Origin: a virus
Taxonomy: Duplodnaviria > Caudoviricetes
Length of the DNA stretch: 64,000 nt
Reading direction: 5' to 3' (one strand)
IMG/VR virus record: IMGVR_UViG_3300026549_000039
Span: 1 to 64,000 of that record
Positions 1-14,816 of the stretch are shown one piece after another. A program made the position numbers and the translations under genes. The notes below the pieces were generated by a model. That model was not told the origin of the DNA, ran no database searches, and worked only from the letters and a program-made list of their open reading frames with translations. Position 1 is the first letter of the stretch; each line of letters begins with the position of its first letter.

Positions 1-124
1 CTCCCTTGGGCCGTCACTGAGTGAGGGGGCGGCTCCCTTGGGCCGTCACTGAGTGAGGGGGCGGCTCCCTTGGGCCGTCACTGAGTGAGGGGGCGGCTCC
101 CTTGGGCCGTCACTGAGTGAGGGG
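1..124. repeat. 32-bp tandem repeat, about 3.9 copies, running off the window edge
   Basis: CTCCCTTGGGCCGTCACTGAGTGAGGGGGCGG starts at 1, 33 and 65, with a partial copy at 97. Confidence 0.97.
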
Positions 125-129
125 CCACG

Positions 130-212
130 GCGTCACTCAGTGCGTCACTCAGTGCGTCACTCAGTGCGTCACTCAGTGACGTAACTCAGTGATGTAACTC
201 AGTTACATAACT
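130..212. repeat. 12-13-bp tandem repeat GCGTCACTCAGT x4 plus degenerate copies
   Basis: Exact copies at 130, 142, 154, 166, then GACGTAACTCAGT, GATGTAACTCAGT and TACATAACT; the core is the reverse complement of the 32-mer core. Confidence 0.95.
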
Positions 213-247
213 GCTCCCACGTATACATCACGCGGGCGCAGGATATA

Positions 248-284
248 ACGCAATGCGCCTATATATATAGGGGGCGCATTGCGT
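248..284. repeat. Near-perfect palindrome with a (TA)5 centre
   Basis: ACGCAATGCG-CCTATATATATAGG-ggg-CGCATTGCGT. Confidence 0.85.
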
Positions 285-312
285 GCCACATCAGGAAGGG
301 AGGGGGATCGCC

Positions 313-510
313 ATGGACGCGATCCAGGCGCTTCAAAGATTTACCAACATGGCGCGAGACATCCGCGCCTATGAAGCCTCCCTAGGGGATTCACCTACGG
401 AGGATCAGCGGTTGTGGCTGTCGTCTCTGTATTGCCTTCTTCGGGAGGCATGGGACGACGTGAGTTTAGAAATTCCTATGCCCGCGGCCTTTTGGGACCT
501 GCGGACATAG
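313..510 (+). CDS. hypothetical early protein
   Basis: ATG at 313 after GGAGGGGG; first ORF of the co-oriented cassette. Confidence 0.55.
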   Translation: MDAIQALQRFTNMARDIRAYEASLGDSPTEDQRLWLSSLYCLLREAWDDVSLEIPMPAAFWDLRT

Positions 511-588
511 CATAGCACGACAGGGAACAAATCCGCCCATGGCGGGCGGGTAAGAAATCATAAAACAAAATTCGGGAGGACACGTAAC

Positions 589-849
589 ATGAGGATTCAG
601 ATTCAGTACGCGGGCGACGGGTTCATGGGTAAGGTCTACAGCGGCTACAAGGCCAAGAAGGTCCTGCGGGACATCCTGCGTGACACCGAGTTCACCATGG
701 ACGACATCCGCAGCCTCCGCCACGGCCAGGCCCTTGTGAAGCCCGGCCAGGTGGCCGAGGCGCTCTTCTACCGTGGCAGGATGTGGATCTCGGTGTATGA
801 CGACACCGAGATGGGACGCTGGGACCTCTTCACCGTCTACCTCGGGTAG
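589..849 (+). CDS. hypothetical early protein
   Basis: GGAGGA RBS; GC3-biased codons. Confidence 0.8.
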   Translation: MRIQIQYAGDGFMGKVYSGYKAKKVLRDILRDTEFTMDDIRSLRHGQALVKPGQVAEALFYRGRMWISVYDDTEMGRWDLFTVYLG

Positions 850-888
850 ACGGTGAACGTCAACACAACCAAGGAGGAAGCGCATAAC

Positions 889-1239
889 ATGACGACGAAG
901 TTTTCTGAGATTTGCGAGCTCAATATGGACACCATCACGGCGGCGCTGCATCAGGCCGCCCTTGAGGTTGAGGGCGCGGAGGTTGACGGCTACCACGTGG
1001 CCGTCAGCATCGATGCGGAGGGGAACGTCCACACGTTCCCCTGCCCTTACGGGACCATCCCGCCCTCCGTGCGGGATGGGGGCGAGCTGATCATCCGGCG
1101 GTTTGTCTCGGGCGTGGAGTTCGCGCCCGAGGGCTGGGCGGATTCCGTCGATTGGGCGGCGGAGGCCGCCCTGTACATCATGGCGCTCCGCCAGTGGGAG
1201 CGCGAGACGGCGGAGATGGAGGCGGAGGCGGCCTGCTAG
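889..1239 (+). CDS. acidic hypothetical early protein
   Basis: AAGGAGG at 871-877 places the start at ATG 889 rather than 853. Confidence 0.8.
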   Translation: MTTKFSEICELNMDTITAALHQAALEVEGAEVDGYHVAVSIDAEGNVHTFPCPYGTIPPSVRDGGELIIRRFVSGVEFAPEGWADSVDWAAEAALYIMALRQWERETAEMEAEAAC

Positions 1240-1262
1240 GCCGCCACAGTGCAACAAGCGTA

Positions 1263-1332
1263 GGGGTCAGTCCTTCCCCCTCTTCCCTCACAGCAGCAGC
1301 ATAAAAGGGAAGCCTGCCGGAAGGATGACCCC
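1263..1332 (+). promoter_or_regulatory. long intergenic stem-loop, possible RNA processing site
   Basis: Nested pairings GGGGTCA/TGACCCC, TCCTTCC/GGAAGGA, CTTCCCT/AGGGAAG. Confidence 0.55.
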
Positions 1333-1391
1333 ATAAGGGCATGACCCCATAGGCAAAGACCCCCATATGGGGGCAGAAAGGTTGGAGTAGC

Positions 1392-1661
1392 ATGATCGAG
1401 CAGATTAGGAAGACGGTTGTGGAGAATTTCGGCGGCATCTTCAAGAGTGCGGATGAGCATGTGTACCTGCTCATCAAGCGCAATGGTGACATGGCTTGCA
1501 GCTATGACGCCATGCCGGGGACGGCCATCCCCAGCAGCAGGGACCGCTTCTTCAGGCTCCCCGCTGGCCGGGTGAAGAAGAAGACCCGCATGGCCCTGCT
1601 GAAGAGCCACGACTGGCTCTTTGCCCCCTATCTCCTGAAGGAGCTGGGCCTCATCAAGTAG
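1392..1661 (+). CDS. basic hypothetical early protein
   Basis: GGAG RBS; coding-like codon bias. Confidence 0.75.
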   Translation: MIEQIRKTVVENFGGIFKSADEHVYLLIKRNGDMACSYDAMPGTAIPSSRDRFFRLPAGRVKKKTRMALLKSHDWLFAPYLLKELGLIK

Positions 1662-1773
1662 GCCCGGCCCCTTCGGGGGTGACCCCGTGACCCCATGACC
1701 CCGTGACCATCCCAAACCACAGGGGCCACGGGGGTCACCCCATCACAAAGCGCAAGCAGCAAAGCACAATACA

Positions 1774-1830
1774 GGGCGAAACGGGGACAATATGTCCCCG
1801 TCTTGGGGTAAAGCCCCAACTGATGAGCCC
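1774..1830 (+). ncRNA. type II hammerhead ribozyme
   Basis: GGGC-GAAA-CGGGGACA(ATA)TGTCCCCG-TC^-TTGGGG(TAAAG)CCCCAA-CTGATGA-GCCC: full catalytic core, GUC cleavage triplet, three perfect stems. Confidence 0.93.
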
Positions 1831-1848
1831 ATAAGGAGGAATCAACAC

Positions 1849-2259
1849 ATGAGACAGATCATGTTCAAGAAGCCGCGCCAGTTCCGTAAAAGCATGATAG
1901 AGGGGGAGTTGTACAACGTCACCACCGCAGCAGCATCAGACGTTGAGTATGCCCTGCTGTTTACTGGCAAGCAGGGCAGCAATGACCCCAGCAACGAGGA
2001 CGAGGGCGAGGCCCTTGTCTTCAGGAAAGTATCCACGGGGCAGGACATCATTGTCCCCATCAACGAGCCGGGGTTGACCATCGAGTGGGAGTATACCCGC
2101 TCCCCTCAGTCGGAGCCACTCCCCAATGACCCCATGACTGCGGTGGACCTCGCGAGGCTATACGTGAAATACAGCCTCGCCCCAAAGAACAAGACCCCGC
2201 GTGAGGTTGCGCGGGACGTTCAACAGGGATGGCGTCCCTTCCCCGTGGAGGGGCGCTAG
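1849..2259 (+). CDS. hypothetical early protein downstream of the hammerhead
   Basis: AAGGAGG at 1833-1839 and ATG at 1849; the track start 1792 lies inside the ribozyme. Confidence 0.8.
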   Translation: MRQIMFKKPRQFRKSMIEGELYNVTTAAASDVEYALLFTGKQGSNDPSNEDEGEALVFRKVSTGQDIIVPINEPGLTIEWEYTRSPQSEPLPNDPMTAVDLARLYVKYSLAPKNKTPREVARDVQQGWRPFPVEGR

Positions 2260-2302
2260 TCGGGGGCAATGACCCCCACAAAAACACAAGGAGGAAACCA
2301 AA

Positions 2303-2710
2303 ATGGCAAAGAAAGACATGAAGGATAGGGCTCACGGCAATATAGACAAGGCGAGGGAAAAGGTCCAGGTCGCCATAATCCTTGACCCCAATGGGGTCAA
2401 GGTGGGCAGCGTTGTTCACCGCTGGACCTACCCCGCGACGGGGGGTGTTTGCCACACCAGCTTCAAGCTGATGAGCAACAGCAACTACGACCTTGACCCC
2501 GTGGTCCACTACTCCGAATCTGGGGGGTGCGGCTATGACAAGGCAGCCAATAACCTCTGCTGGGTCTTCTTGGATAAGCAGCCCCAAATTGAGGCCATAA
2601 CAGGCCGCCCCTATCCCAAAGACCCCGACGGGGGATTGACCTGCTACCTGGCCAACCACTGGAGGAGTTACTTGGAGGACGCGGGCTACCGCGTCATTGA
2701 CGCCCTGTAG
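2303..2710 (+). CDS. hypothetical phage protein (GGxGYDK motif), paralogue of 3150-3638
   Basis: AAGGAGG RBS; shares V.IILDP and Y.VI.AL with 3150-3638. Confidence 0.85.
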   Translation: MAKKDMKDRAHGNIDKAREKVQVAIILDPNGVKVGSVVHRWTYPATGGVCHTSFKLMSNSNYDLDPVVHYSESGGCGYDKAANNLCWVFLDKQPQIEAITGRPYPKDPDGGLTCYLANHWRSYLEDAGYRVIDAL

Positions 2711-2730
2711 AGGGCGTCAAAGAAAGGAGA

Positions 2731-3117
2731 ATGACCCCTATGATTAGGTACGTCTACGCACATATCGACACCACTTCCTCCCTAGCGGACACCCCGCTAG
2801 GGGGGGCCATGGTCAACGCCGCTTGGAACCATGGCGAGGCGTTTGTGAGGGGCCTGCTTGAGAAGCATGGCCCCGCAGAGTTTAAGGCCAAATGGGAGGG
2901 CCATGACCCCTGGACGTTCAGGGAGGAAATGTACATCAGAACGGAAGTCATGACCCCCCTCTGGCCCCTGTTGGACCTCCTCGAAGAAGCAGAGGAGGAA
3001 AACGCAGGGGAATTGAGGGCCGACATCATGGAGGCGCTGGAGAAAAGTCTGTGGCTTGCCTACACGGAGGCCATGGACACGGTAGGGGGCGACTATTGGG
3101 GCAAAGACCCCGACTAG
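2731..3117 (+). CDS. acidic hypothetical early protein
   Basis: AAAGGAG RBS; alternative in-frame start at 2740. Confidence 0.8.
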   Translation: MTPMIRYVYAHIDTTSSLADTPLGGAMVNAAWNHGEAFVRGLLEKHGPAEFKAKWEGHDPWTFREEMYIRTEVMTPLWPLLDLLEEAEEENAGELRADIMEALEKSLWLAYTEAMDTVGGDYWGKDPD

Positions 3118-3149
3118 CGCCCCCTATGACGTAAGGAGGAAGAGCAGAT

Positions 3150-3638
3150 ATGTCAGCAACATTCCGGTTGGACGCAAGGGTCAGCGATATCAAAGACCCT
3201 GTAGAGGCAGTCGAGGAGTACATCCTCGACACAAGGAAGAAAGTGCGGGTGTTCATTATCCTTGACCCCGCACTCCAGATAGCAGGGCGCATTGTCCAGT
3301 CCTGGGAGATGATACCCTGGACAGTCGGGCACCCAAGCGCCCCGGAAGTTCACCCCGGCGACTTCATGCCAATTCGGGGATGCATGGCCCGCGCAAGCGT
3401 AGAGCTTGACGTAGTGGGCCATGACCCCATCAACGTGACCGTGGAGGTCTGGGACAACCCCAAAGACCCCACGGACACGGCGCTGATGTACGCACTATTG
3501 GAGGCCCGTCAGGGTATCGAGGCCATAACAAACATGGCCTTCCCTGATCGGGATGACCCCCAGAGCTGGGATGAAATCCGCGCCCAATGGGTGGAGTGGT
3601 TCGAGGGCGCGGAATACAGCGTGATTGAGGCCCTCTAA
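3150..3638 (+). CDS. hypothetical phage protein, paralogue of 2303-2710
   Basis: AAGGAGG RBS; shared motifs and shared downstream junction sequence. Confidence 0.85.
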   Translation: MSATFRLDARVSDIKDPVEAVEEYILDTRKKVRVFIILDPALQIAGRIVQSWEMIPWTVGHPSAPEVHPGDFMPIRGCMARASVELDVVGHDPINVTVEVWDNPKDPTDTALMYALLEARQGIEAITNMAFPDRDDPQSWDEIRAQWVEWFEGAEYSVIEAL

Positions 3639-3668
3639 AGGGCCTCAAAGAAAGGAGAATGACCCCCT

Positions 3669-4244
3669 ATGAAGAAGGACACTGACAGCATTATTCGCAT
3701 TATTCGCGAGCAGTTCCACGAAGTCCCCACGAGGGATTACGCCGCGCCCACAAAGGAGACCCTGTATGCAGAGCAGTGGGCGAGCATCAAGCGGACCTGT
3801 GAGACCCTCGCCTATCTCTACGATGGAGATTTGTACGTGGGCGACATGATCACGGAGGCCGCTGTGGATGCAGCCCCCATCGACAACCGGGAGATCATGC
3901 GGGCCTATGAGGATGTGGAGCCGTTCGTGGCCGAAGTCCTGGCCGACGGCTACGACCTTGACCCCAAGAGTTTCAGGATCCCGCAGCTTGTACAGGCGGG
4001 GTATGTGCGCTTCTTGGAGGCGGCGGCCTATGAGAATCTTCAGACGATTTTCTTCAACAGGTTCGCGGCCTGCGCAAATGCTGACCCCGCCTTGACCGGG
4101 GAAGACCCCGACGATGACCCCCCGGTGGACCTGATGAAGCTGGAGGCCGCCCTTGAGGCGGCGGCGGAAAAGGTAGACAATAACATGACCTTCGCGGAGG
4201 CCGATGCAATCTACCGCGAGGCCGTGAAGGGCTTCAAGGCGTAG
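3669..4244 (+). CDS. acidic protein, possible Ocr-like DNA-mimic antirestriction protein
   Basis: GDMITEAAVDAAPI...QLVQA...YENL recalls T7 Ocr HDAIHMAADNAVP...ILQARIYEQL; D/E-rich. ORF is solid, function tentative. Confidence 0.5.
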   Translation: MKKDTDSIIRIIREQFHEVPTRDYAAPTKETLYAEQWASIKRTCETLAYLYDGDLYVGDMITEAAVDAAPIDNREIMRAYEDVEPFVAEVLADGYDLDPKSFRIPQLVQAGYVRFLEAAAYENLQTIFFNRFAACANADPALTGEDPDDDPPVDLMKLEAALEAAAEKVDNNMTFAEADAIYREAVKGFKA

Positions 4245-4279
4245 GGGATGACCCCCTACGCCTATAACACGAAAGGAGA

Positions 4280-4930
4280 ATGCAAGAGATGATCGAGATA
4301 GCGAGAGCAGTTGACCCCAAGATCGGGTATGTAGAGGTGTGCGCAGAAGATTACGCATACGAGAATCCTATGAAGGACTGGGATCACGTCCCTGACATTA
4401 TGCTGATACACCGCTATAGAGGGCTCGCGACCCTGGACGATGACCCCAGAGACTACAGTATCAGGGAGCTAAGTGAGCGCTACGGGCGGGATGGGGGCCT
4501 TGCACTCCCCGTGTACGCCTATGACCACAGCGGGGTATCATTCGCCGTTAGCGACGGCTACCCCTACAATGACCCCTGGGACGCCGGGATTGCTGGCATT
4601 GCCTACGTCAGCCCTGAGAAAGCAAGGGCAACGTGGGGAGAAACCCTGACCCCGCAAGAGCTCAGGGAGAAATGCAGGGACAGCATAGAGAGCCTTGTGG
4701 CTCTGATGAACGCTGTGGCCGACAATGAGTGCTACTTCGTGACGTGGTATGACACGGAGTGCAACCCCGTAGATAGCTGCGGGGGATTCTGGAAGACAGA
4801 CAGATACAGCTACGAGGAAATGTTCCGCGATATGGCAGACATGGCCCCAGCAGAGTATCAGCCCCTCTTTGAACGCCTTGAGGCGTGGAAGATTGACCCC
4901 ATCAAGGTGAGCAGGAAGCTCATAGACTAG
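4280..4930 (+). CDS. conserved phage/mobile-element hypothetical protein
   Basis: LPVYAYDHSG...DPWDAG motif recalled from phage/ICE proteins; AAAGGAG RBS. Confidence 0.75.
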   Translation: MQEMIEIARAVDPKIGYVEVCAEDYAYENPMKDWDHVPDIMLIHRYRGLATLDDDPRDYSIRELSERYGRDGGLALPVYAYDHSGVSFAVSDGYPYNDPWDAGIAGIAYVSPEKARATWGETLTPQELREKCRDSIESLVALMNAVADNECYFVTWYDTECNPVDSCGGFWKTDRYSYEEMFRDMADMAPAEYQPLFERLEAWKIDPIKVSRKLID

Positions 4931-4943
4931 GAGGATAACCCCC

Positions 4944-5150
4944 ATGGTAAAAGGTCGGAAATATTATCTACGCGTTCTCACGCCTTACGGCATGGAGCGC
5001 ATAGCGGGGCGCTACGTGGGTAACAACTCACGTGGCGTCCTTCGTTTCTGTGACCCCGATGATGACAGCATCGAGTATGAGGTCAACGATTGCTGTATCT
5101 TCGGGGTCAGGACGGCCATATGGCCGCAACATCTGGTCATAGGAGGATGA
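4944..5150 (+). CDS. small hypothetical protein
   Basis: AGGAGG RBS; fills the gap between neighbours. Confidence 0.7.
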   Translation: MVKGRKYYLRVLTPYGMERIAGRYVGNNSRGVLRFCDPDDDSIEYEVNDCCIFGVRTAIWPQHLVIGG

Positions 5151-5155
5151 CCCCC

Positions 5156-5590
5156 ATGAGCGATCTATATGGCGGCAAGGTAGCCAGCGCTTGGACAAAG
5201 CTGGCTAAGGGTGTATCGGTCTATGTGGGATTTGTGACCCCATGTGGGCGTGTGCCCCTGGAAGTCCTCCGGGTGCAGATTAACCACAAGACACGCAAGG
5301 ACGGGACACAGGAACACGAGGCGTTCATCCTGTTGACCCCGAAAAACGGTAGGAACGTAAACGTCACAGGATGGGGCGCGGGCGAGACTGAGACATTGGC
5401 GCTAGTCGGAGCTGTGGAGGCGCTGTGGGCCTCCATGAAGGGCAACAACTACCCAGAGATGCCCCTGTTCATGCACTACGACAGGGAGCAGTATAGTGTC
5501 TATGCGCTCTGCGAAGAGCTGAGCGCAGGCAACAGGGATCAGGCCCTGTTGAGGATGAACGGTAGCATTGTATGCTATCAAGCTGTATAG
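5156..5590 (+). CDS. hypothetical protein, possible distant paralogue of 2303/3150
   Basis: AGGAGG-ATGACCCCC-ATG start context. Confidence 0.75.
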   Translation: MSDLYGGKVASAWTKLAKGVSVYVGFVTPCGRVPLEVLRVQINHKTRKDGTQEHEAFILLTPKNGRNVNVTGWGAGETETLALVGAVEALWASMKGNNYPEMPLFMHYDREQYSVYALCEELSAGNRDQALLRMNGSIVCYQAV

Positions 5591-5619
5591 AACGGGCGAA
5601 CATAAGGAGGATGACCCCC

Positions 5620-5955
5620 ATGAAAGGCAACGGAATCAAGGCAAAGACCCCGGTAGAAAAGCCGGACGTAATCAAGGTCCTGAGCGCAGAACAGCTAGAG
5701 CAGGTCAGGGAGTACTTCAGGTGGGAGTTCAGGGAGACAGAGCTGAGGGGAGCCTTGGACTCCCTGATTGACCTCAAACGCGGCAGCGGGGAGGAGCAGG
5801 ATGCGTCCATGATCGAGGACGCACAGGAGATAATCGTGGAGACACTCCTGCCTGAGACGGAGGAATGGGAGGAGAACATCTACAACTACTGCGCTAACAG
5901 GCAAATCTCCTTCCTTGACGAGATTGACGCACGGCTGAAGGGGTGGATCCTGTGA
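5620..5955 (+). CDS. acidic hypothetical protein
   Basis: AAGGAGG-ATGACCCCC-ATG start context. Confidence 0.8.
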   Translation: MKGNGIKAKTPVEKPDVIKVLSAEQLEQVREYFRWEFRETELRGALDSLIDLKRGSGEEQDASMIEDAQEIIVETLLPETEEWEENIYNYCANRQISFLDEIDARLKGWIL

Positions 5956-6064
5956 GGATGACCCCCTGCGCAGCAATTAGGTTGTTGTGCGCTATGCACA
6001 ACGTAGAGCTAATCGAGCAAATCTTGCATATTGCCATTGAGCTGGCAGAAAGGATCGGTTAATC

Positions 6065-6508
6065 ATGATGACTACGAGGATGGAGTACGTAAAGAAAGAC
6101 AGCCACAGCATTGACACCGTGACCCTGAGCGTGAACGTTGATGCAGCCTCTGAGATGGCAGCCCTGGCCCTGAAGCATGACCCCACTCTGCTGAGAATCA
6201 ACATCGTGCCAGAGACCGACGGAGAGGACACACTCTACTACGTGGCCTACCCAGAGGATGCAAAGCCGGTCGCAATCCACATGGATAACCCCGTAGCTCT
6301 GAAAGTCATGGACATTGACGATGACGAGCAGCTTATCCTGAAGATTGCTGACAACTACTTGGCCGAGGCGTTTGAGATTATCGACTACGAGGACAACGAC
6401 GGGGACTTCATCAGGGGGATCGCAATCGGGAACGACTTCATCCCCATGAATGAGTTCATCAGCACTGACAGCCCGTGGGTTGCGGGCAAGATGAAAGGAG
6501 GTAAGTAG
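6065..6508 (+). CDS. very acidic hypothetical protein
   Basis: AAAGGA RBS; Asp/Glu-rich. Confidence 0.8.
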   Translation: MMTTRMEYVKKDSHSIDTVTLSVNVDAASEMAALALKHDPTLLRINIVPETDGEDTLYYVAYPEDAKPVAIHMDNPVALKVMDIDDDEQLILKIADNYLAEAFEIIDYEDNDGDFIRGIAIGNDFIPMNEFISTDSPWVAGKMKGGK

Positions 6509-6510
6509 CA

Positions 6511-6948
6511 ATGTGGGGTAAGCCCATCAGGGGTCAGAGTGACCCCATAGGAGCGTACAAGGCGCGTAGACTGGAGGAAGCAGGTGAGGCCAAGTGCCTC
6601 ACCATCCCTCTTGACAGCACACTTACCCTGACCTTGACCCCGGAGCAGGATGCACAGCTATACCAGTACTACCTGCGTCAAATGGACTGGGAGGAGGCAG
6701 AGAATCAGGTGGCGCGGGCCGTGGAAAGCATGACCCTGTACTCCGATGACCCTGTGTGCATACAGGAAGGGCAGCGCCTAGACCATAACAGGCGAGAGTT
6801 CATCGAGAAACTCTTGCCTGATATCCCTGATATGCGCGAGGAATCCCTCAGATTTGCCGATAGTGAGGGAATAGGTATCTACGATCAGGTCAGGGATAGA
6901 TTGTCTGAATTGCTAGACGATGACCCCATTAGTGAGGGGGAAGACTAG
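6511..6948 (+). CDS. acidic hypothetical protein
   Basis: AAAGGAGGT RBS; tightly packed. Confidence 0.8.
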   Translation: MWGKPIRGQSDPIGAYKARRLEEAGEAKCLTIPLDSTLTLTLTPEQDAQLYQYYLRQMDWEEAENQVARAVESMTLYSDDPVCIQEGQRLDHNRREFIEKLLPDIPDMREESLRFADSEGIGIYDQVRDRLSELLDDDPISEGED

Positions 6949-6951
6949 CAG

Positions 6952-7503
6952 ATGGGGATGGCAGTGGCAGATATGGCACAGCAAGAGCTGGATGGTATCC
7001 TCCCCGGTGGTCTTACATGGACCTGGGTGCAGGGTGAAGGTATCACGGTATACAGAGAGGATGACCCCATCCTCTCTGTAGTATGGAGTTACGGAAAGGT
7101 AAAGATGGAGCACTACGAGGGAGGTGTGATAACACTAGAGCAAAAGTTCCTGCTGGGGAAGGTAGCAGCACAGCTCATGGATATGGAACAGCCTATCGTA
7201 GAGGAAATCTGGCGTATAGTGGAGCCCTACGCACGGATGACCCTGGCCGACAAGGCTAAGGTGTGCCGTAGGGAGGAACTAGCCAACTTCTTCTATGATG
7301 GCAATCCTGTGTACTACAAGACCCTGACAGGCTGTATAGACCGTGTACGCGAGCAACTGGGAATGTGTGGAGAGGAGTGGGATGAAGCATTTGAGCTGTA
7401 TTCCAACGTATACACGTATGCAGATGAGGTCGAGAATTGTATCATTGAGACACTGCGGCCTTACTTTGCGTTTGAATTTGTGCTAAAGGAGCCTGATGAA
7501 TGA
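6952..7503 (+). CDS. hypothetical protein
   Basis: Operon packing; GAGGGGG RBS. Confidence 0.75.
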   Translation: MGMAVADMAQQELDGILPGGLTWTWVQGEGITVYREDDPILSVVWSYGKVKMEHYEGGVITLEQKFLLGKVAAQLMDMEQPIVEEIWRIVEPYARMTLADKAKVCRREELANFFYDGNPVYYKTLTGCIDRVREQLGMCGEEWDEAFELYSNVYTYADEVENCIIETLRPYFAFEFVLKEPDE

Positions 7504-7952
7504 TGAATACTACTGACACAGGAACACCTGAAGAGAGGAGAGAGATCAATATCGGCATACTGCGAGGGCTGGAGGCTGGAGCTACGTACAGGCGCATCAA
7601 AAGCCTACCAGCCCTAGATGATCTGCTGATTCTCAAAAAGAAAGACCCCGAGGGGCTGTATAAGGCAGCCGTCAAGCTGCGCGTGGACCGCGAACAGCTT
7701 GAAAATGACGTGCTTGTCCCCCTGCGCAGGGCGGTAGCCGAGGTTATCAACCTGCGCTCAATCATGATCGATGGCGAACCCCTCTTTGACGATGACCACT
7801 ACGCCACGATAAACCAGGAACACTGGCAGCAAAACGCTATAGCAGGGCTGCTTAGCCAGATGATGCACACAGAGCTGGCCCTGTTAAAGTATGAGAGCAA
7901 GGATACGATGGACCGTCTGGGATTGACCCCGGACACAGACACTAACGCATAA
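7500..7952 (+). CDS. hypothetical protein
   Basis: ATGA overlap with the upstream stop; AAGGAG RBS. Confidence 0.8.
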   Translation: MMNTTDTGTPEERREINIGILRGLEAGATYRRIKSLPALDDLLILKKKDPEGLYKAAVKLRVDREQLENDVLVPLRRAVAEVINLRSIMIDGEPLFDDDHYATINQEHWQQNAIAGLLSQMMHTELALLKYESKDTMDRLGLTPDTDTNA

Positions 7953-7971
7953 CACATAGGAGGATACCAAA

Positions 7972-8367
7972 ATGGCAAAGAAGGCAGCAGCGAAGAAGGT
8001 TGACCCCAAGGAGCAGCAGCGCGAGAACTGGCACGCCCTGGCGAAGATGTGCCGCAGGTACGTCGAGCTTAAGGCCCAGATGGATGAGATGGAGAAGGAG
8101 AAGAAAGCCCTGTCCGCGCTCATTAAGCAGGCTGTACCCGAGAGAGGGCAGGCTAAGGGGATTGGAGACCCCGAGATTGCAGGCAGGGTCTACAACATCA
8201 AGATCACGGAAGTACAGAGTAAGCGCATGGATCAGGACTTGGTGCGCAAATTCTTGACTGATGAGCAGATCGAGGTCTGCACCAAGATCGTGACCTCAGA
8301 GCGCATGACTGTTGATGCTATGGACATTGTGGCGCAGGCGGCCTGCGCCGAGACCAACTTCCTGTAG
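7972..8367 (+). CDS. coiled-coil phage protein, weakly Gam/gp157-like
   Basis: AGGAGG RBS; RRYVELKAQMDEMEKEKKAL coiled coil followed by a beta-rich tail. Confidence 0.6.
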   Translation: MAKKAAAKKVDPKEQQRENWHALAKMCRRYVELKAQMDEMEKEKKALSALIKQAVPERGQAKGIGDPEIAGRVYNIKITEVQSKRMDQDLVRKFLTDEQIEVCTKIVTSERMTVDAMDIVAQAACAETNFL

Positions 8368-8406
8368 GGCCTACCCTACAGGAAGATGACCCCATAAGGA
8401 GGCATA

Positions 8407-8871
8407 ATGATGAGCAGCAAGAAGACGTTGGTAGTTAAGGGTCAAAGCGGAGTTTTACCGAGCGGCATGGCCTGGATGGAGATGGACGGGGAAATCTGGG
8501 TGTACGGCAAGAACGCCATGGGAGAGAATGAGTGGTTAGTTCCTGCTCTCAGCCTGCTTGACCCCGCTGACGCAGACGAGATGGCCTGCCTTGGCACCAT
8601 GCTGAATCAGGAAGCCGAGCAGATGGAGAAAGACGCTCATTGGTACGGTACCACCTGGATGGACAGCATTATTGGAGACGGGGAGCTCGACGAGTGGCAG
8701 GACATGGACTATTTTGCCTTCCAGCAGGCCCTGAGCAACGCTAATGACCCCGCCTTCACACCAGACAGCGAAGACGTAGACTACAGCAGCGTAGATGGTG
8801 AGTTCTATGTGCTGGCTGTAGATGCTGCGTGGAATACCCTGTGCAACGCCCTTGGTGACGATGAGGACTAG
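8407..8871 (+). CDS. very acidic hypothetical protein
   Basis: AAGGAGG RBS; D/E-rich. Confidence 0.8.
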   Translation: MMSSKKTLVVKGQSGVLPSGMAWMEMDGEIWVYGKNAMGENEWLVPALSLLDPADADEMACLGTMLNQEAEQMEKDAHWYGTTWMDSIIGDGELDEWQDMDYFAFQQALSNANDPAFTPDSEDVDYSSVDGEFYVLAVDAAWNTLCNALGDDED

Positions 8872-8876
8872 CGGCT

Positions 8877-9287
8877 ATGATGTACTGGGACCCAGACCTG
8901 CATGAAATGGTGTGTGATGAGGAGGAGACCCCGTTCAAGCTGAATCCACCTAAAGAGGTGCCTAGTTGCCCACAGGTTGACCCCCTCTCACTGTATGCTG
9001 CGTTAAAGCTCGCTAGTGTGCCAAAATCAGAGTACACTAGCTGGAACGTGAAACCTGTCGTGACAACACCCGCCAAGATTCTAGCCTTTTCACTCTTCTT
9101 GGTGGAGGCGCTTTATGGGTGTGCAATACTGCTCTGGATTTTCTGCTCTTTCATACTCCCGATGACCGATCACCTTCCATCGTTTCTAGGGCTAGTTGTA
9201 GCCCCCATAGCTTTAGGCGTATGGGTTTATTACGCAGAAGAAAAGGAGATAGCAAAGGGAGAAGATGAATCACTGTGTGGGCTGTAG
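8877..9287 (+). CDS. membrane protein with 2 predicted TM helices
   Basis: Hydrophobic stretches ILAFSLFL...CSFIL and FLGLVVAPIALGVWVYY. Confidence 0.7.
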   Translation: MMYWDPDLHEMVCDEEETPFKLNPPKEVPSCPQVDPLSLYAALKLASVPKSEYTSWNVKPVVTTPAKILAFSLFLVEALYGCAILLWIFCSFILPMTDHLPSFLGLVVAPIALGVWVYYAEEKEIAKGEDESLCGL

Positions 9288-9604
9288 GCATATGTGAAAG
9301 ATGCGGGACAGTGGTAGCTTTCAGAACAACGACCCCGGTAGTCAAGTCCTTAATGCGGGGTCACAGCTACTACTGTCCCGTATGTGGTATGTACAAGCTG
9401 CTGAAAATCCATGCAATTCCTAATGCGCAGCAGCTTGATAAGGCGTATAATGAGCTCCGTGTAGGAATCATCCTCGAATCCAATACGGAGGTCAGTCAGT
9501 ACAATGCTCAAGAAGACGCAACCGAAGGACTTGTTAAGAAATATAAAGACCCCAACAGCTTGTGGTGGCTCGACGAAGCCAATCAAGCTCCTGAAGGGGA
9601 CTAA
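9275..9604 (+). CDS. zinc-ribbon protein
   Basis: CERC...CPVC. Confidence 0.65.
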   Translation: MWAVGICERCGTVVAFRTTTPVVKSLMRGHSYYCPVCGMYKLLKIHAIPNAQQLDKAYNELRVGIILESNTEVSQYNAQEDATEGLVKKYKDPNSLWWLDEANQAPEGD

Positions 9605-11126
9605 CCCCGGCACATTGACAACCAAAGGAGGAAGTCTGGTAGATACCAGCATGAGGATGAATACACAGAGACAGGTAGTTGAAATCAAAGTAGGATACAC
9701 GTATTCCAGGATAGTGACCCCCAAGGAAGCAATCGCCCTTGCGGCGAAGGAGTTCTCTGCATTCGCCCGCAATGCTCAGTATCAGACTCTCTATCAGCGC
9801 GGGTTGTGGGATGGCCGCTACTCCATGGTCAACAAGAAGGACGGGTCATTCGGTACAGGTATGCTGGCCGACATCAAGGCATACCTAGAGCATGAGATCG
9901 GAGCAGCTATAGAGGTAACCGATCTCAGGGAAATGCCCCCGTCCAGCTACTCCTATGAGTGGCTGTTTGACAAGCCTCTGCGTGAGGCCCAAGTGGGTGC
10001 GCTGGAGAAACTTAACAGCAACACAAGCGGGATAATCCGCATGGTTACAGGGTCAGGAAAAACGAATGCCTTCAGCAAGCTGATTCAAGAAAGAGGGGTC
10101 CGAACTCTGGTATGTGTCCCCAGTAAGGAGCTACTCTACCAAACCGCAGAAGTGTTAAACAGCAACATTGGCGGTAAGGACTTCAAGCTGGGCTTGCTTG
10201 GCGACGGACACTGGCCTGATGAGCGTAGCACAGTGGTTGTAGCGATGTATCAGAGCCTGGTCTCTCTACACGGGAAGACCCCAGAGGAACGGGCGCAGTT
10301 CATCGAAACCATGGGCAGCTTTGACATGCTGATTTGTGACGAGTGCCACAAGGTGTGCTCGAACGACAGCATCACAAAGACTTGGGAGACCATCATGGAC
10401 ATCAACACCTACTACCGCTACGGATTCTCCGCGACCCCGTATGAAAAGAAGGGCACCGTGGCGGAAATGCTACAAAGGTCTGCCTTTGGCAAGATTATCT
10501 ATGACATGAACATGAAAGAGGCACGTGAGGCCGGATACGTGACCCCGTTCACTGTATACATGCTAAAGCCCGAGTATCCCAGAGAGCTGACCCGGCAGGG
10601 CACTACTGGAATGACCTGGAACGAGGCCCATGACTACTACATTGGGAACAACGCTACCAGGAATGACGCCGTAGTGCAGGCTGTAGGCTTGCTCCTGAAG
10701 GATAACAGGAAGGTGATGGTGGTAGCTCAAAGGATACAACACAATGAGCTGCTCGCCAAAATGTTCGCAGAGACCTACGGAGAGGATAATGTGTACCTGC
10801 TGCATGGACAGCTTGACAGTACATACAGGAAGAAGAGTATGAGTGAGTTCAAAGCACGAAAGACCCCCTGCATCATGGTGGCAAGCTCTGTAGGGAATGA
10901 CGGCATCGACATCCCAGACATTGATGGGCTCGTGCTTGCTCATGGTGGCAAGTCCTTCTTCCAGAACGTGCAGAGGACAGGCAGAGGACTGAGGTCTGCA
11001 CAAGGCAAGAAGGACCTTGTGTTTATTGACTTCAATGATGCAGCCTTGGGCCGCTGGTTCCAGAACCACACCAAGAAGAGGGTGGAGTACTATCAGGATC
11101 TGGGCGCTAAGGTTGTATTTGCATAG
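9504..11126 (+). CDS. SF2 DExH helicase, UvsW-like (true start probably near 9636-9657)
   Basis: Motifs MVTGSGKT, DECH, SAT, GIDIP, QRTGRGLR. Confidence 0.92.
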   Translation: MLKKTQPKDLLRNIKTPTACGGSTKPIKLLKGTNPGTLTTKGGSLVDTSMRMNTQRQVVEIKVGYTYSRIVTPKEAIALAAKEFSAFARNAQYQTLYQRGLWDGRYSMVNKKDGSFGTGMLADIKAYLEHEIGAAIEVTDLREMPPSSYSYEWLFDKPLREAQVGALEKLNSNTSGIIRMVTGSGKTNAFSKLIQERGVRTLVCVPSKELLYQTAEVLNSNIGGKDFKLGLLGDGHWPDERSTVVVAMYQSLVSLHGKTPEERAQFIETMGSFDMLICDECHKVCSNDSITKTWETIMDINTYYRYGFSATPYEKKGTVAEMLQRSAFGKIIYDMNMKEAREAGYVTPFTVYMLKPEYPRELTRQGTTGMTWNEAHDYYIGNNATRNDAVVQAVGLLLKDNRKVMVVAQRIQHNELLAKMFAETYGEDNVYLLHGQLDSTYRKKSMSEFKARKTPCIMVASSVGNDGIDIPDIDGLVLAHGGKSFFQNVQRTGRGLRSAQGKKDLVFIDFNDAALGRWFQNHTKKRVEYYQDLGAKVVFA

Positions 11127-11192
11127 TATAGAACGGTGTTGTGCCAAAAGCATGACCCCATAAAACGGAAATAGTTAGACAATTTGCAGGCA

Positions 11193-11220
11193 TTGACATT
11201 ACAGCGTTTGGCTGTATTAT
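11193..11220 (+). promoter_or_regulatory. sigma70-type promoter with overlapping palindrome
   Basis: TTGACA-16 bp-TATTAT; TACAGC/GCTGTA inverted repeat across the spacer. Confidence 0.65.
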
Positions 11221-11290
11221 GGAATGTATAGACAATTCCTTTTCTGTATGGGTAGCGTCTATGCATTCTTGCTTTTTCTGGAGGTATGAC

Positions 11291-11887
11291 ATGTCGAAGT
11301 TCTTAAACAGCAACCCCGTTGATCGCGTTGATATGGTGGACACATCATATCCCGGCCTGATGGCTGGTACGAAGGAGCTAATAGGTGCTGCGTGCGCTGT
11401 CGTGGACAAGCTCAACATCCCTGACAGCAAACACGTGTTCGCAGCCGAGATGCTGTTGCTGTCTGGGCTTAGCCTGTTGATGGTCGCAGACAAAGGGTTC
11501 AGCAGCAACATCCACTACGACAACCTGCACATTGACGGTAAGAAGCTGCCTGTACAGACGGTTAGTGTTCGCATTACTACCAATGCCCCCGCTGATGCAA
11601 ACCTGGATCGTCCGTCCCCGGTACGCAGCATGAAGGAAAATCCCAATCAGGAGGTAGAGGCTGAGGCTGAGCCTACCCCTGTAGAAGACTCTCTTGATGA
11701 TGACTACCCCAATGTGCAGGACGCAAGCGAGTATGAAGAGGCTGTAGCAGAGTGGGAGAGGGACCAGCAAAGGTTTGGGGACAAGCCAAAGATGACTGAT
11801 ACTGGAACCAAGATAGGTAAAAGACCCCCTAGCAAACCCTCGGTGCCTAAGAGACCTGCTGGCAACCTTCACGGAGGTGAGAAGTAG
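11291..11887 (+). CDS. hypothetical protein with a disordered acidic-then-basic tail
   Basis: GGAGGT RBS before ATG 11291. Confidence 0.75.
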   Translation: MSKFLNSNPVDRVDMVDTSYPGLMAGTKELIGAACAVVDKLNIPDSKHVFAAEMLLLSGLSLLMVADKGFSSNIHYDNLHIDGKKLPVQTVSVRITTNAPADANLDRPSPVRSMKENPNQEVEAEAEPTPVEDSLDDDYPNVQDASEYEEAVAEWERDQQRFGDKPKMTDTGTKIGKRPPSKPSVPKRPAGNLHGGEK

Positions 11888-11890
11888 ATT

Positions 11891-13273
11891 ATGCTTTTCG
11901 GAGAGTTTGTAACCAAGCTCGAAAAAGCGAGTGGAAAGAAGGCCAAGGAAAAGATCATCGCTGATGCGTGCAAAGCTGCCCCTTGGATAAAGGACGCCAT
12001 TGTGGCCACCTATGACCCCTTCTGCCAGTATTACATCAAGAATGGGTTGCCAAAGGTGGTAGTAGCGTCTGCCAAGTCGGACAGCACTGTAGACTTTGAC
12101 GAGAAATTCTGGACTGGAACTGTGCAGCCTCTACTGGCTGGTATGAACCAGCGTAGGTGGAACAAGGCAGAGGTGGTAGACCAGCTGAGCCTGGCCTTCG
12201 CTAACCTCAACCAGGGAGACAGGGAGGCTCTAAAACGTATCATTCTCAAGGACTTGAGGGTAGGAGTAGGGCCAAAGGGTTACAATGCAGCACTTGGTGA
12301 GAATACCCTCCCTGTGCCCGATACGCAGCTCTGTAAGACATGGGACCCCGATCTTAATATAAACGTAAAGGGGTGGTGGGTAACGCCCAAACTGAACGGC
12401 CTACGTGGGCGCTGGACGGTAAGAAATGATAGGTTTGCATTCCTTACCAGGGAGGACTATCCGCTCATAGGATTCCCCTTTATTGAGGAGGAACTCAAGG
12501 CTATACAGGAGAAGTATGGCCTAGTTATGATCGACGGTGAGATATTCAGCTTCGACCTCCCCTTCCAAACCATCATGAGCATTGCCAGGACTGAGAAGGA
12601 GGTGTCCCCGCAGGACAAGGCAAAGCTCAAGTTCCATGTGTTCAACATCAGGAAGGAGACCCCGTACAAGACCACAAAGGATATGGTCAACGAGCTGAAC
12701 GCTATCTTCAAGAATAAGGACAGCTATCAGTACGTTACCAAGCTGGACTACGAGTGGATGGGCAACAGGCCCGCAGCCATAATAGCTAAGTGCCAGAGCT
12801 ACACCAACCTAGATTATGAAGGGATTGTACTCCGTCACCCCGATATGGCTTGGGAACCAGCCAAGCGCAACAACCACCTTATGAAGTACAAGATATTCTA
12901 TGAGACCGATCTAAAGGTGGTTGACATACTCTTCGGGGCTGAGGGTAAGAAGTGGGAGTCTACAGTTGCAGCCCTGCTGTGTGAGGGCAAGGTACCAGCA
13001 CGCAGGGCAAGAATAGGCAACCATACGATCTGGAAACCCGTGTCTGGTTCGGTTAAGGATTATGTAGGAGAGGAGATTCGTGAGATCCCTGTGCAGGTTG
13101 AGGCTTCATGCTCGAAATGCACGGATGCTGAACGAATGACCCTCACCAAGGTTGGACGCGACCTCATTGGCCTCACAGCGGAGGTGTCGTTCCAGGCGTT
13201 CGGGGACAAACCGAGCCAGGATGGTGTGTACTCGTTGCAGTTTCCAGTGTTTCAGAAGTTCAAAGACATCTAA
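11891..13273 (+). CDS. lig: ATP-dependent DNA ligase
   Basis: N-terminal DNA-binding region (IILKDLRVGVG); motifs KLNGLR, IDGEI, FHVFN, EGIVLR, MKYK; OB-fold SLQFPVF. Confidence 0.92.
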   Translation: MLFGEFVTKLEKASGKKAKEKIIADACKAAPWIKDAIVATYDPFCQYYIKNGLPKVVVASAKSDSTVDFDEKFWTGTVQPLLAGMNQRRWNKAEVVDQLSLAFANLNQGDREALKRIILKDLRVGVGPKGYNAALGENTLPVPDTQLCKTWDPDLNINVKGWWVTPKLNGLRGRWTVRNDRFAFLTREDYPLIGFPFIEEELKAIQEKYGLVMIDGEIFSFDLPFQTIMSIARTEKEVSPQDKAKLKFHVFNIRKETPYKTTKDMVNELNAIFKNKDSYQYVTKLDYEWMGNRPAAIIAKCQSYTNLDYEGIVLRHPDMAWEPAKRNNHLMKYKIFYETDLKVVDILFGAEGKKWESTVAALLCEGKVPARRARIGNHTIWKPVSGSVKDYVGEEIREIPVQVEASCSKCTDAERMTLTKVGRDLIGLTAEVSFQAFGDKPSQDGVYSLQFPVFQKFKDI

Positions 13274-13286
13274 GGAGGATATTGCT

Positions 13287-13796
13287 ATGCCTATGGGATT
13301 TAAGCCGCACGTGAATCGCGTTTGGGAGTTCAGCAAGCTGATGGGAATACTGAAGGAAGCTATGGGGCCGGAGGTGGTAACAGACCCCGGTTGGTTAGGC
13401 CTCCCCTACAAGTTCTACATGCCCTACCTAGCCTTTGAGAGCAACCCAGAGGATGGGTACGACCAGCTTCACGTGGTAAAGATTAGCGCCACAGGTCTGT
13501 TCTACATACACAGACTCGATAGTATAACAGGCGAGCCTATATCTCAAGACCCCGTTCTGTTTCTTGGGGATGGCAGGAATGAGGGATACGTTGTAGTCAG
13601 GTCCCATGCAGATGATTCTATAGAGCTGGCACGGGCTACTCTTTTTGATAAGGACGGGGTGGCTGTAGCACAGACGTATACCAGGCTTATCAGGCTGTGG
13701 GGGACAGAGGATGTGGAGACCCTGTTAAGCAGCTTCCTTAGCATGAGAGAGTTACAGAAGCTCAAAATAGGGGCGCTTAAGAAGGCAACGTTCTAG
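13287..13796 (+). CDS. hypothetical protein
   Basis: AAGGAGG RBS before ATG 13287. Confidence 0.8.
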   Translation: MPMGFKPHVNRVWEFSKLMGILKEAMGPEVVTDPGWLGLPYKFYMPYLAFESNPEDGYDQLHVVKISATGLFYIHRLDSITGEPISQDPVLFLGDGRNEGYVVVRSHADDSIELARATLFDKDGVAVAQTYTRLIRLWGTEDVETLLSSFLSMRELQKLKIGALKKATF

Positions 13797-13869
13797 GCTG
13801 TGGGGTATAATAGGCTCATCCTAGGCTGTAACAAGCCGCTTATCTTTCAGGAAGGACGTGTTGGCTACT

Positions 13870-14379
13870 ATGGCTGAAAACGATGTTGTATACGGCTACC
13901 ACGAATTTTGGGCAACAGGGGACTGGTTTGACGCCAATGACCCTGTACTGCGTGTAGGCGAGCGTGGGAACGATGTAACGCGCCTTGTTTCAAAATTTGG
14001 GGACGGGTCTACACCGTGGAGCAGGCTGCCCCAATTTACCTTCCAGTCTGCCTACGACTGCTACCTCCGGCTGGAGACACTACAAGGTGTCCCCGTGGCA
14101 AACCTCAAATCCGAGGCTGACTGGCTGAACAGCATGAAAAACCCCAGCATTGACTGGGACTCGCTAACAGCAGCGCAGAAGGCGGAATTGAAGGGGCCTC
14201 CTGGTGAACAGGGCGAACAGGGAGTGGCTGGTAAATCTGCCTTCCAGCTGGCGCAGGACGGCGGGTTCACGGGCACGCAGGCGGAATGGCTGGAGAGCCT
14301 CAAGGGTGAACCAGCGGTCAACGCCGACGTGATCGATGGCAACCTTCCCGTGCAGAGTAGTGGAGGCGGGGGCGCGTGA
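13870..14379 (+). CDS. fibre-type protein with Mtd_N/hyaluronidase-like N-terminus and short collagen segment
   Basis: NDPVLRVGE...KFGDGSTPWSRL; GPPGEQGEQG; GKSAFQLA..GFTGTQAEWLESLKG. Confidence 0.75.
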   Translation: MAENDVVYGYHEFWATGDWFDANDPVLRVGERGNDVTRLVSKFGDGSTPWSRLPQFTFQSAYDCYLRLETLQGVPVANLKSEADWLNSMKNPSIDWDSLTAAQKAELKGPPGEQGEQGVAGKSAFQLAQDGGFTGTQAEWLESLKGEPAVNADVIDGNLPVQSSGGGGA

Positions 14380-14399
14380 CCCCATAGGAAACAGGAATA

Positions 14400-14455
14400 G
14401 GCGGCGGCTTTGAGGGATCTAAAACAGCAACCCCCAGAGCCGCCGCCAAGTTTTT
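14400..14455 (+). terminator. intrinsic terminator
   Basis: GGCGGCGGCTTTG/CAGAGCCGCCGCC stem followed by AAGTTTTT. Confidence 0.7.
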
Positions 14456-14520
14456 AAAACAGCAACCCATAGCTGTAGGCTTATGCTACGGCTGCTGGTC
14501 CTTTTAACCCCGAAGGGGTG

Positions 14521-14542
14521 CCCGCCCGTTAGGGCGGGTTTT
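14521..14542 (+). terminator. second intrinsic terminator
   Basis: CCCGCCC-GTTA-GGGCGGG-TTTT. Confidence 0.7.
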
Positions 14543-14590
14543 ATACTCCTATATACCTACTCCTATACCTACTCCTATATATACTTCTAT
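14542..14590. repeat. AT-rich short repeats beside the iterons, possible unwinding element
   Basis: TACTCCTATA x3 plus TACTTCTATA. Confidence 0.65.
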
Positions 14591-14636
14591 AAGGGCCCCG
14601 TAAACGGTTCAGCCGCAGCGGTTTAGGTGCTGTTTT

Positions 14637-14816
14637 TGGCGTCCACGAAATCACGTTTTTGGCGTCCACGAAATCACGAAAATGGCGTCCACGAAATCAC
14701 GGTTTTTGGCGTCCACGAAATCACGATTGGCGTCCACGAAATCACGTTTTTGGGTTTGACCCCCTATACCGTACCGTGATTTCGTGGACGCCATTTTCGT
14801 GATTTCGTGGACGCCA
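14637..14816. repeat. iteron array, putative replication origin
   Basis: TGGCGTCCACGAAATCACG exact at 14637, 14660, 14683, 14707, 14728 and inverted at 14775, 14798; 21-24 bp period; abuts the rep stop codon. Confidence 0.88.

Follow-up and report, generated by a model that had tools for sequence, protein, structure and literature searches.

A polar GACCCC word fills the early operon of a human-gut phage and its relatives and may label early transcripts as a class

Why would a phage write one short word, almost always in the same orientation, through a single operon? The question is raised by a 64,000-nucleotide window, the first 64 kb of one 146,263-bp phage contig (IMG/VR record IMGVR_UViG_3300026549_000039), in which a co-directional early operon is filled with the hexamer GACCCC. 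A sequence-only reading of this window had put the number of plus-strand copies between 1.3 and 14.8 kb at about 69, mostly as TGACCCC and then AGACCCC, with about 6 on the minus strand. Our recount agreed, with 69 copies on the + strand (1327-14763) and 7 on the - strand in 1-15 kb, and with T in 49, A in 17, C in 2 and G in 1 of the + strand copies at position -1. Local base composition predicts about 4 copies per strand in the early region, and the remaining 131 kb of the genome holds 10 on the + strand and 16 on the - strand. The intergenic triplets described earlier are real (1327-1363 and 1681-1702), and the last copy, an isolated GACCCC at 14758-14763, does lie between the direct and the inverted groups of a 19-bp repeat.

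The extended form of the word is A-[T/A]-G-A-C-C-C-C followed by any base except T, or about 13.5 bits, with A at position -2 in 40 of the 69 copies. It is exact. Single-mismatch variants of GACCCC are at background, with a slight rise only for AACCCC (10:1) and GACCCT (12:4), and the sixth position is required (GACCCC 69, GACCCT 12, GACCCG 2, GACCCA 1). The density of copies is about 8 per kb at 2 to 6 kb, 3 to 7 per kb (mean, about 4.7) at 6 to 9 kb and 2 to 3 per kb at 9 to 14 kb. Copies between 1.9 and 9.8 kb are spaced more evenly than random placement would give (coefficient of variation, 0.66; 0.16% of simulations were as low, P of about 0.002), and tandem copies lie 8, 15 to 16, 23 or 28 nt apart with no convincing helical phasing (best R, 0.19 at 9.3 bp). 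Nineteen copies are intergenic, at about twice the coding density. The profile of the word within genes is flat in a metagene analysis, with a recurrent position at -7 before the start codon, in the spacer between the Shine-Dalgarno (SD) sequence and ATG (copies 2733, 3661, 5149 and 5613, within 2722-2742, 3650-3671, 5140-5158 and 5604-5622). Only 26 of 123 early genes carry a copy between -45 and +12 of the start, and the word is not concentrated in translation initiation regions. No position 3' of the word is conserved, and a promoter reading, with the word as a -35 or activator box, was rejected because nothing downstream of it is conserved. Sigma-70-like sites in the operon are at the chance level.

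Selection on the word acts on nucleotides rather than on codons or protein. When synonymous codons were permuted inside each of 21 early genes in 500 shuffles, the coding sequences kept 19.9 +/- 3.2 copies on the + strand (at most 30 in any of the 500) against the 50 observed, and the - strand kept 2.1 against 4. The enrichment persists under these shuffles, and the earlier statement that it is not simple codon bias holds. A composition or codon artefact is excluded. The word also reaches into the proteins. Asp-Pro (DP) occurs 36 times in the early proteins (14.6 expected) and Thr-Pro (TP) 25 times (10.0 expected), and 32 of the 36 DP are spelled GACCCC. Because DP is raised about 1.4- to 1.5-fold across the other proteins of this phage, part of the early DP excess is generic. 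Judging from these dipeptides, the word is strong enough to alter early protein sequences.

Outside the operon, the word is avoided. As the reference for the counts, the synonymous codons of 93 non-early genes were shuffled. RACCCC was found 16 times in the sense orientation (37.7 expected) and 29 times in the antisense orientation (41.4 expected), and GACCCY was found 38 times (61.0 expected) and 35 times (46.2 expected), respectively; the control word YACCCC was not depleted in sense or antisense. In the + strand non-early genes, sense RACCCC fell to 6 against 20.7, a value that 0 of 300 shuffles reached, and antisense RACCCC was 12 against 17.2. The word family is about two-fold under-represented outside the operon, most of all on sense strands, and so the word is not neutral there.

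The relatives of the phage come from human gut metagenome assemblies, and we reached their syntenic loci via helicase homologues of 57 to 99% identity. GACCCC counts on the + and - strands were 33 and 7 in L008, 27 and 4 in L013, 21 and 2 in L014, 23 and 4 in L006, 33 and 2 in L035, and 20 and 1 in L158, with L006 and L035 both taken from a single scaffold (ERZ28593764). TGACCC in L035 is at 42:0. Pooled over five genomes, GACCCC stands at 179:11 and ATGACCCC at 61:0, with 20:1 for GACCCC in the sixth lineage. In the five-genome pool, the word family is the most asymmetric 6-, 7- and 8-mer, above the SD words. The early-block GC content of the relatives is only 0.43 to 0.50; therefore, high GC is not the cause of the run.

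The small early genes of these lineages are mostly without an orthologue in the others or have 25 to 49% identity, and individual word sites are kept in orthologues of only 28 to 30% identity. Three word sites of the helicase are shared with relatives, and two are kept through a switch from xxG-ACC-CCx (Thr-Pro) to GAC-CCC (Asp-Pro). The intein in the L008 helicase falls within the 2-kb gap between the word copies at 7936 and 9956. Conservation in related phages, which the sequence-only reading had put forward as a check, is thus borne out in that the polar word is kept in syntenic operons despite early-gene turnover. Among more distant helicase-bearing loci, there is a weak run in L012 (10:0) and none in L010 and L011, and in the lineages of homologues P0018-P0027 the run is likewise weak or absent. 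A search of IMG/VR for triple clusters turned up only tandem repeats and unrelated high-GC contigs, with no further phage family that has such a run, and a literature search for the word returned primers only. The early helicase itself contains an intein in some lineages (homologues P0002, P0008, P0016, P0017, P0019 and P0024) and none in the studied genome.

The boundaries of the run follow gene content, not distance. Wherever its start is visible, the run begins after one to three same-strand, motif-free genes that follow the promoter region and are themselves unrelated between lineages; here, the first 1.3 kb, with three small genes, has no + strand GACCCC. A tandem intergenic cluster opens the run in three of four lineages (here, L008:1688-1734 and L013:2737-2788), and in L035 the run starts at the first gene past a promoter-like array. 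This array (L035:3300-5050, directly upstream of the run) consists of about ten tandem copies of a unit of about 120 to 150 bp, each with an element resembling a promoter (..ACGCAAT..GCAAAAC..GATGGTAATATGAT) and with ACCCC words, which stand at 17:0. The ACGCAAT half-site also flanks the TATATATATA box at positions 247-290 of the window. At its other end, the run stops in the ligase gene at any length, which is 11 kb in L008 and L013, 13 kb here and 18 kb in L035 plus L006. The proposal that the word is a signal for first-entering DNA in a terminal region stands in part. A strand-specific, nucleotide-level signal confined to the early block is present; "terminal" is not supported, and the limits of the run track genes.

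Table 1. Features of the early operon and its surroundings (window coordinates)
Feature	Position	Strand	Basis or remark
Tandem arrays, 32-bp x4 and 12-bp x4	1..180	.	At contig break
Candidate early promoter/operator: palindrome ACGCAATGCGCC...GGCGCATTGCGT flanking TATATATATA	229..290	+	Inferred
Three small GC-rich first genes, 0 + strand copies, not conserved in relatives	283..1239	+	
Long inverted repeat pairing GGGGTC (- strand copy, 1263-1268) with the first + strand copy	1261..1332	+	Predicted RNA hairpin
Run of 68 GACCCC copies (A-W-GACCCC), co-directional early operon	1327..14383	+	Counts
First tandem cluster, 3 copies, 16- and 15-nt spacing, intergenic before gene 1392-1661	1327..1363	+	Run start
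Second tandem cluster, 3 copies, 8-nt period	1681..1702	+	5' hairpin arm with GGGGGTCACC at 1727-1739
Probable type II hammerhead ribozyme	1774..1834	+	RF02276, 29.1 bits, E 2.8e-4
Ocr-like anti-restriction gene, inside run	3669..4244	+	phrog_2568, E 1e-6
Word filling SD-to-ATG spacer (AGGAGGATGACCCCCATG)	5140..5158	+	
Superfamily 2 (SF2) helicase (UvsW/recombination type), six word copies	9504..11126	+	
ATP-dependent DNA ligase; run end in every lineage examined	11891..13273	+	
Intrinsic terminator-like hairpin and T run closing + strand block	14520..14539	+	
19-bp repeats (GGCGTCCACGAAATCACG), five direct and two inverted	14632..14816	.	

Taking up the "mRNA tag" named among the options of the earlier reading, we tentatively favor the possibility that (A)WGACCCC works in cis and in one strand orientation to label the early operon as a class, and that it is read on RNA or during transcription. 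A sequence-specific factor present throughout the clade would read the word on the sense strand, whether in early mRNA, in nascent RNA or on the non-template strand. With copies every 150 to 350 nt in open reading frames (ORFs), gaps and SD-ATG spacers, each early cistron would be reached, and with the remainder of the genome purged of the word, the early class alone would be affected. The likeliest outcome would be a timed, class-wide shut-off, by cleavage, decay or arrest of early messages, after host takeover. Polarity, nucleotide-level selection, gene-tied boundaries, conservation through gene turnover and depletion elsewhere are observed; from them we infer that RNA is the molecule read, that such a reader acts on it and that the result is shut-off rather than stabilization.

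We favor a class label because it explains together the sense polarity, the gene-anchored ends, the even coverage and the copies in ribosome-binding-site (RBS) spacers, and because it accommodates the RNA structures and ribozyme at the start of the run, the persistence of the word through gene turnover, its clade specificity and its purge from other sense strands. Of the options offered earlier, it fits the run boundaries and the sense-strand purge best. Each of the two tandem clusters, beside the hammerhead, is predicted to fold into a hairpin in which one copy pairs with GGGGUC, and the hairpin at the start of the run separates motif-free gene 3 from the motif-bearing genes. The hammerhead lies between early genes 4 and 5, directly after the second cluster and before the RBS of gene 1849-2259. 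Its score is below the gathering score of 37, with the full model matched, all core nucleotides present and a three-way junction predicted; it was found in a 221-nt scan and missed in a 17-kb scan, and scans of three relatives returned no hammerhead at an E value of 0.5 or less. This probable ribozyme indicates that its stretch acts as RNA, and together with the predicted hairpins it suggests that the leader is a processed RNA.

Several results weigh against a label read on RNA. In RNA, the word is predicted to be no more accessible than hexamers of the same composition. Of the proteins that were scanned against Pfam and PHROGs, none was recognized as a ribonuclease or RNA-binding protein; most proteins are orphans there, including all of the small early ones. 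Two conserved early proteins looked up in the Protein Atlas gave no usable match, and a reader encoded in a conserved first gene was not found, the first genes being unrelated between lineages. The label is missing from the three genes that open the early block. The purge contrast is modest (0.42 versus 0.70 by sense and 0.51 versus 0.64 by strand), and GACCCC alone has a z score of -2.5, ranking 316th of 3994 depleted hexamers. Finally, a function at a DNA end would account at least as naturally for copies that thin out with distance from the operon start.

The closest parallel for a label on early messages is T4 RegB, which acts on GGAG in early mRNAs. In both cases, a short sense-strand word is dense in early transcripts, occurs also in initiation regions and is rarely seen in later genes. 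The phage word differs in that it is 7 to 8 nt long, lies outside the SD sequence, runs evenly through ORFs at 1 per 150 to 350 nt and reshapes proteins; moreover, no RegB-like nuclease was seen among the scanned proteins, and reading on RNA is here a proposal. Few cis signals act on the scale of a genome; short polar words like Chi, KOPS, uptake sequences and RegB sites belong to that group, and each led to a moving DNA or RNA reader. The word described here fits no known family cleanly. It is about as informative as Chi and is confined to the host-takeover operon of human-gut phages of about 147 kb. Possibly, it belongs to an undescribed regulatory grammar in which a temporal class is addressed by a polar octamer, purged elsewhere, that is read by a clade-specific factor on RNA or single-stranded DNA. 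If so, unrelated incoming genes would have to acquire the word to join the early class. Identifying the reader would lead to the timing or protection of first gene expression or to a new Chi-type word of an uncultured gut host, and, for this phage group, the word also serves as a simple marker by which early anti-defense blocks can be spotted in metagenomic contigs. We also weighed a Rho-related idea, with the word as a C-rich ligand of the primary binding site in a RARE-like trap (PMC12360218). It was set aside because lone scattered pentamers form no rut site and because the sense strand, taken as a whole, is rich in G.

Some readings in which the word acts on DNA involve an end of the genome. 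The end of the contig is an assembly break and so gives no support to the terminal position that had been supposed for the early region. Strain L037, a 147,006-bp contig from another sample (ERZ27252065) that is 99.7 to 99.9% identical to the studied phage, runs from 137.4-146.2 kb of the studied contig via about 750 bp into position 67. These 750 bp are non-coding (L037:8745-9490) and missing from the studied contig, which puts the size of the true genome at about 147.0 kb, in an assembly that closes into a circle. The break falls in tandem repeats (window 1-124 and genome 146,170-146,263) within a repeat-rich, non-coding divergent region of about 2 kb that continues from 145.6 kb. In the L006/L035 relative, the operon is in the middle of a 148-kb scaffold. 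The divergent region may well hold pac or cos, in which case the early operon would, from gene order, be packaged last and ejected first. The mirror-image enrichment that had been suggested as a check at the other genome end is absent: across 125-146 kb, the - strand has 0 copies.

The first of these DNA-level readings is a signal like Chi. Chi words (GCTGGTGG for RecBCD in E. coli and AGCGG for AddAB in B. subtilis) are read by an enzyme that tracks from a DNA end. As 5'-GGGGTCW-3' with its 3' end toward the operon start, the phage word would attenuate a host nuclease of the AddAB/RecBCD class entering from that side. This would shield the first-expressed anti-defense genes and leave fewer CRISPR spacers or prokaryotic Argonaute (pAgo) guides from the entering end. 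Like Chi, the word is short, exact, G-rich, orientation dependent and over-represented even inside genes, and its strict polarity has the right orientation for entry from the left. Its density peaks near the start and decays with distance, its spacing is even and tandem spacings of 8, 15 to 16 and 23 nt without helical phasing would suit a tracking reader of single strands. DNA-level defense has marked this genome (27 of 64 palindromes are absent or nearly so), the run includes an Ocr-like gene and the position of the terminase beyond the non-coding region fits an operon that is packaged last and ejected first, as far as gene order tells.

Nevertheless, we consider a Chi-like role rather unlikely. 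The contig end being an assembly break, the end that the word should face is hypothetical, and no mirrored enrichment is seen at the far side. Promoters and one to three genes on the entry side would be destroyed first (in L035, a promoter-like array of about 1.8 kb), and the run stops at the ligase gene whatever the distance. A purely beneficial site would not be expected to be under-represented elsewhere in the genome, as this word is. Unlike Chi, the word is limited to one operon of 11 to 18 kb and purged elsewhere, and it is 20 to 50 times denser than Chi in E. coli. When ATGACCCC was counted in 401 genomes from a single class that includes Clostridia, no clear excess appeared; the best genome, a fragmented 1.9-Mb metagenome-assembled genome (MAG), had 166 copies against 36 of the reversed control, with replichore polarity unreadable. 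The Chi-like option of the sequence-only reading thus keeps its fit to polarity and orientation and is weakened by the unprotected first genes, the purge elsewhere and the lack of a clear excess in the sampled Clostridia genomes. Chi alone may also fail to protect DNA without a homologue for recombination (10.1101/2021.07.08.451572).

We also think it unlikely that the word is a polar signal in DNA, addressed to a protein of phage or host that translocates along or binds to the first-entering or last-packaged DNA. Such a signal could take the form of a T5-like first-step-transfer block, an entry ratchet, a graded cue to the packaging motor as it approaches or an oriented roadblock by which the early operon is shut off. 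The density of the word is graded upward toward the non-coding repeat region, the probable holder of pac or cos, the word is depleted on both strands elsewhere and the layout resembles T7 class I, with an ocr-like gene near the start, then ligase and then a terminator. On the other hand, T5 and T7 have no comparable word, the first genes, which might have supplied an early reader, are not conserved between lineages, and copies 8 bp apart would be hard to occupy on duplex DNA. KOPS and SRS, the octamers of FtsK and SpoIIIE, are similarly G-rich and polar and climb in density toward a target. KOPS converge from both sides at about one per 10 kb, in contrast to the phage word, which occupies one arm at 50-fold-higher density and whose G-rich strand is directed at the operon start, contrary to what a motor that pulls DNA in from that end would need.

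A primase site appears less probable still. On this account, 5'-GGGGTC-3' on the - strand would prime the lagging-strand template of a fork moving leftward from the 19-bp repeats at 14.6-14.8 kb, an array that may be an origin or a T5 iss-like boundary. T7 gp4 recognizes 5'-GGGTC-3', with a cryptic C and the primer pppACCC, and a zinc-binding domain reads the template in both DnaG and T7 gp4. The complement of the phage word is the T7 site plus one G, its copies are evenly spaced, the right limit of the run is near the candidate origin and a phage-encoded reader would account for a clade-specific word. The phage encodes an enzyme with a catalytic part like that of archaeo-eukaryotic primases (AEP) and a C-terminal DnaG-type CHC2 zinc ribbon. 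The resemblance to T7 priming that had been pointed out is therefore present in the sequence, but T7 shows no polar enrichment of its own primase sites around the origin. Furthermore, the phage word is on one arm only with no mirror on the other, and GACCC and GACC are without strand asymmetry outside the operon. At a spacing of 150 nt, the copies lie much closer together than Okazaki priming in prokaryotes would call for, they become denser with distance from the supposed origin and the depletion elsewhere is left unexplained. To our knowledge, the approximately 13.5 bits of the word also exceed those of any primase site, and the word is longer than known primase sites.

The primase itself has 328 amino acids (genome 83,964-84,950, - strand; L155:165-1151), with AEP-like N-terminal motifs seen by eye (AMDFDYD, containing DxD, and GNGWHLYW). 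Residues 250 to 308 match PF01807 with 25.9 bits in the genome scan (cutoff, 24.9) and 23.5 bits in the whole-protein scan. There is a weak match to the zinc-binding domain of DnaG (1D0Q) and no match to a TOPRIM or Prim-Pol family.

That the word is a by-product of composition, of codon or dipeptide preference or of regional mutation bias in a GC-rich early block, without any signaling function, is scarcely credible: the early block is GC-rich here (0.51 to 0.60 versus 0.46) and the DP excess extends beyond the early proteins, but codon- and amino-acid-preserving shuffles fall far short of the observed count, single-mismatch variants are at background, copies are denser between genes than in them, relatives with an early-block GC of only 0.43 to 0.47 carry the same run, the inserted intein of L008 sits in a word-free gap and sites are kept across frame changes. 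The logic of type III restriction was also rejected, since here one orientation is enriched and the other is not removed. T7 offers a likeness in its EcoP15I sites (CAGCAG), a hexamer held in a single orientation in a phage genome (0:36 in our recount). The T7 bias is genome-wide and consists in the removal of one orientation, whereas the phage word is enriched 17-fold in one operon with the other orientation at background.

Other features of the operon were seen along the way. A strong 16-bp hairpin with a T-rich tail (window 5006-5041, + strand) overlaps a doubtful 68-amino-acid ORF, weakly resembles a plasmid ctRNA (RF00236, E 0.17) and is directly followed by a word copy at 5052; it possibly acts as an internal attenuator. 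The gene that ends the + strand block (13858-14379, + strand) has tail-fiber and Mtd_N-like matches in PHROGs and Pfam and is probably structural rather than early, lying beyond the dense part of the run.

In the wider genome, portal, prohead protease and terminase are on the - strand at 131-136 kb, and the phage encodes a long tape-measure protein of 2163 amino acids. Its other products include a family A polymerase fused to a uracil-DNA glycosylase (UDG) domain, a RecA-like protein, SbcCD-like proteins and an anaerobic ribonucleotide reductase. A DnaB-like helicase (genome 77,034-79,820, - strand; L001:13034-15820) is split by an intein, a Hint/LAGLIDADG-type insertion after the Walker A motif. 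Neither GenBank phages nor IMG/VR yielded a close relative by DNA or helicase pattern, with matches of at most 27% identity. A host search by a scan of genome contigs gave only a 25%-identity match in a Clostridia MAG, and the phage NrdD had no close homologue in 399 scored genomes, with one match at 33% identity.

Finally, about 27 of the 64 hexanucleotide palindromes occur 0 to 2 times in 146 kb, where 20 to 50 occurrences are expected. Those shunned include CTGCAG, AAGCTT, GAATTC, CAATTG, GCTAGC, GTTAAC and TTCGAA, as well as ATTAAT, GCATGC, TCTAGA, CTCGAG and GTCGAC, and the avoidance is alike in the early and late regions. Scarcity this extreme has the signature of restriction-site avoidance and points to a genome shaped heavily by DNA-level defense.

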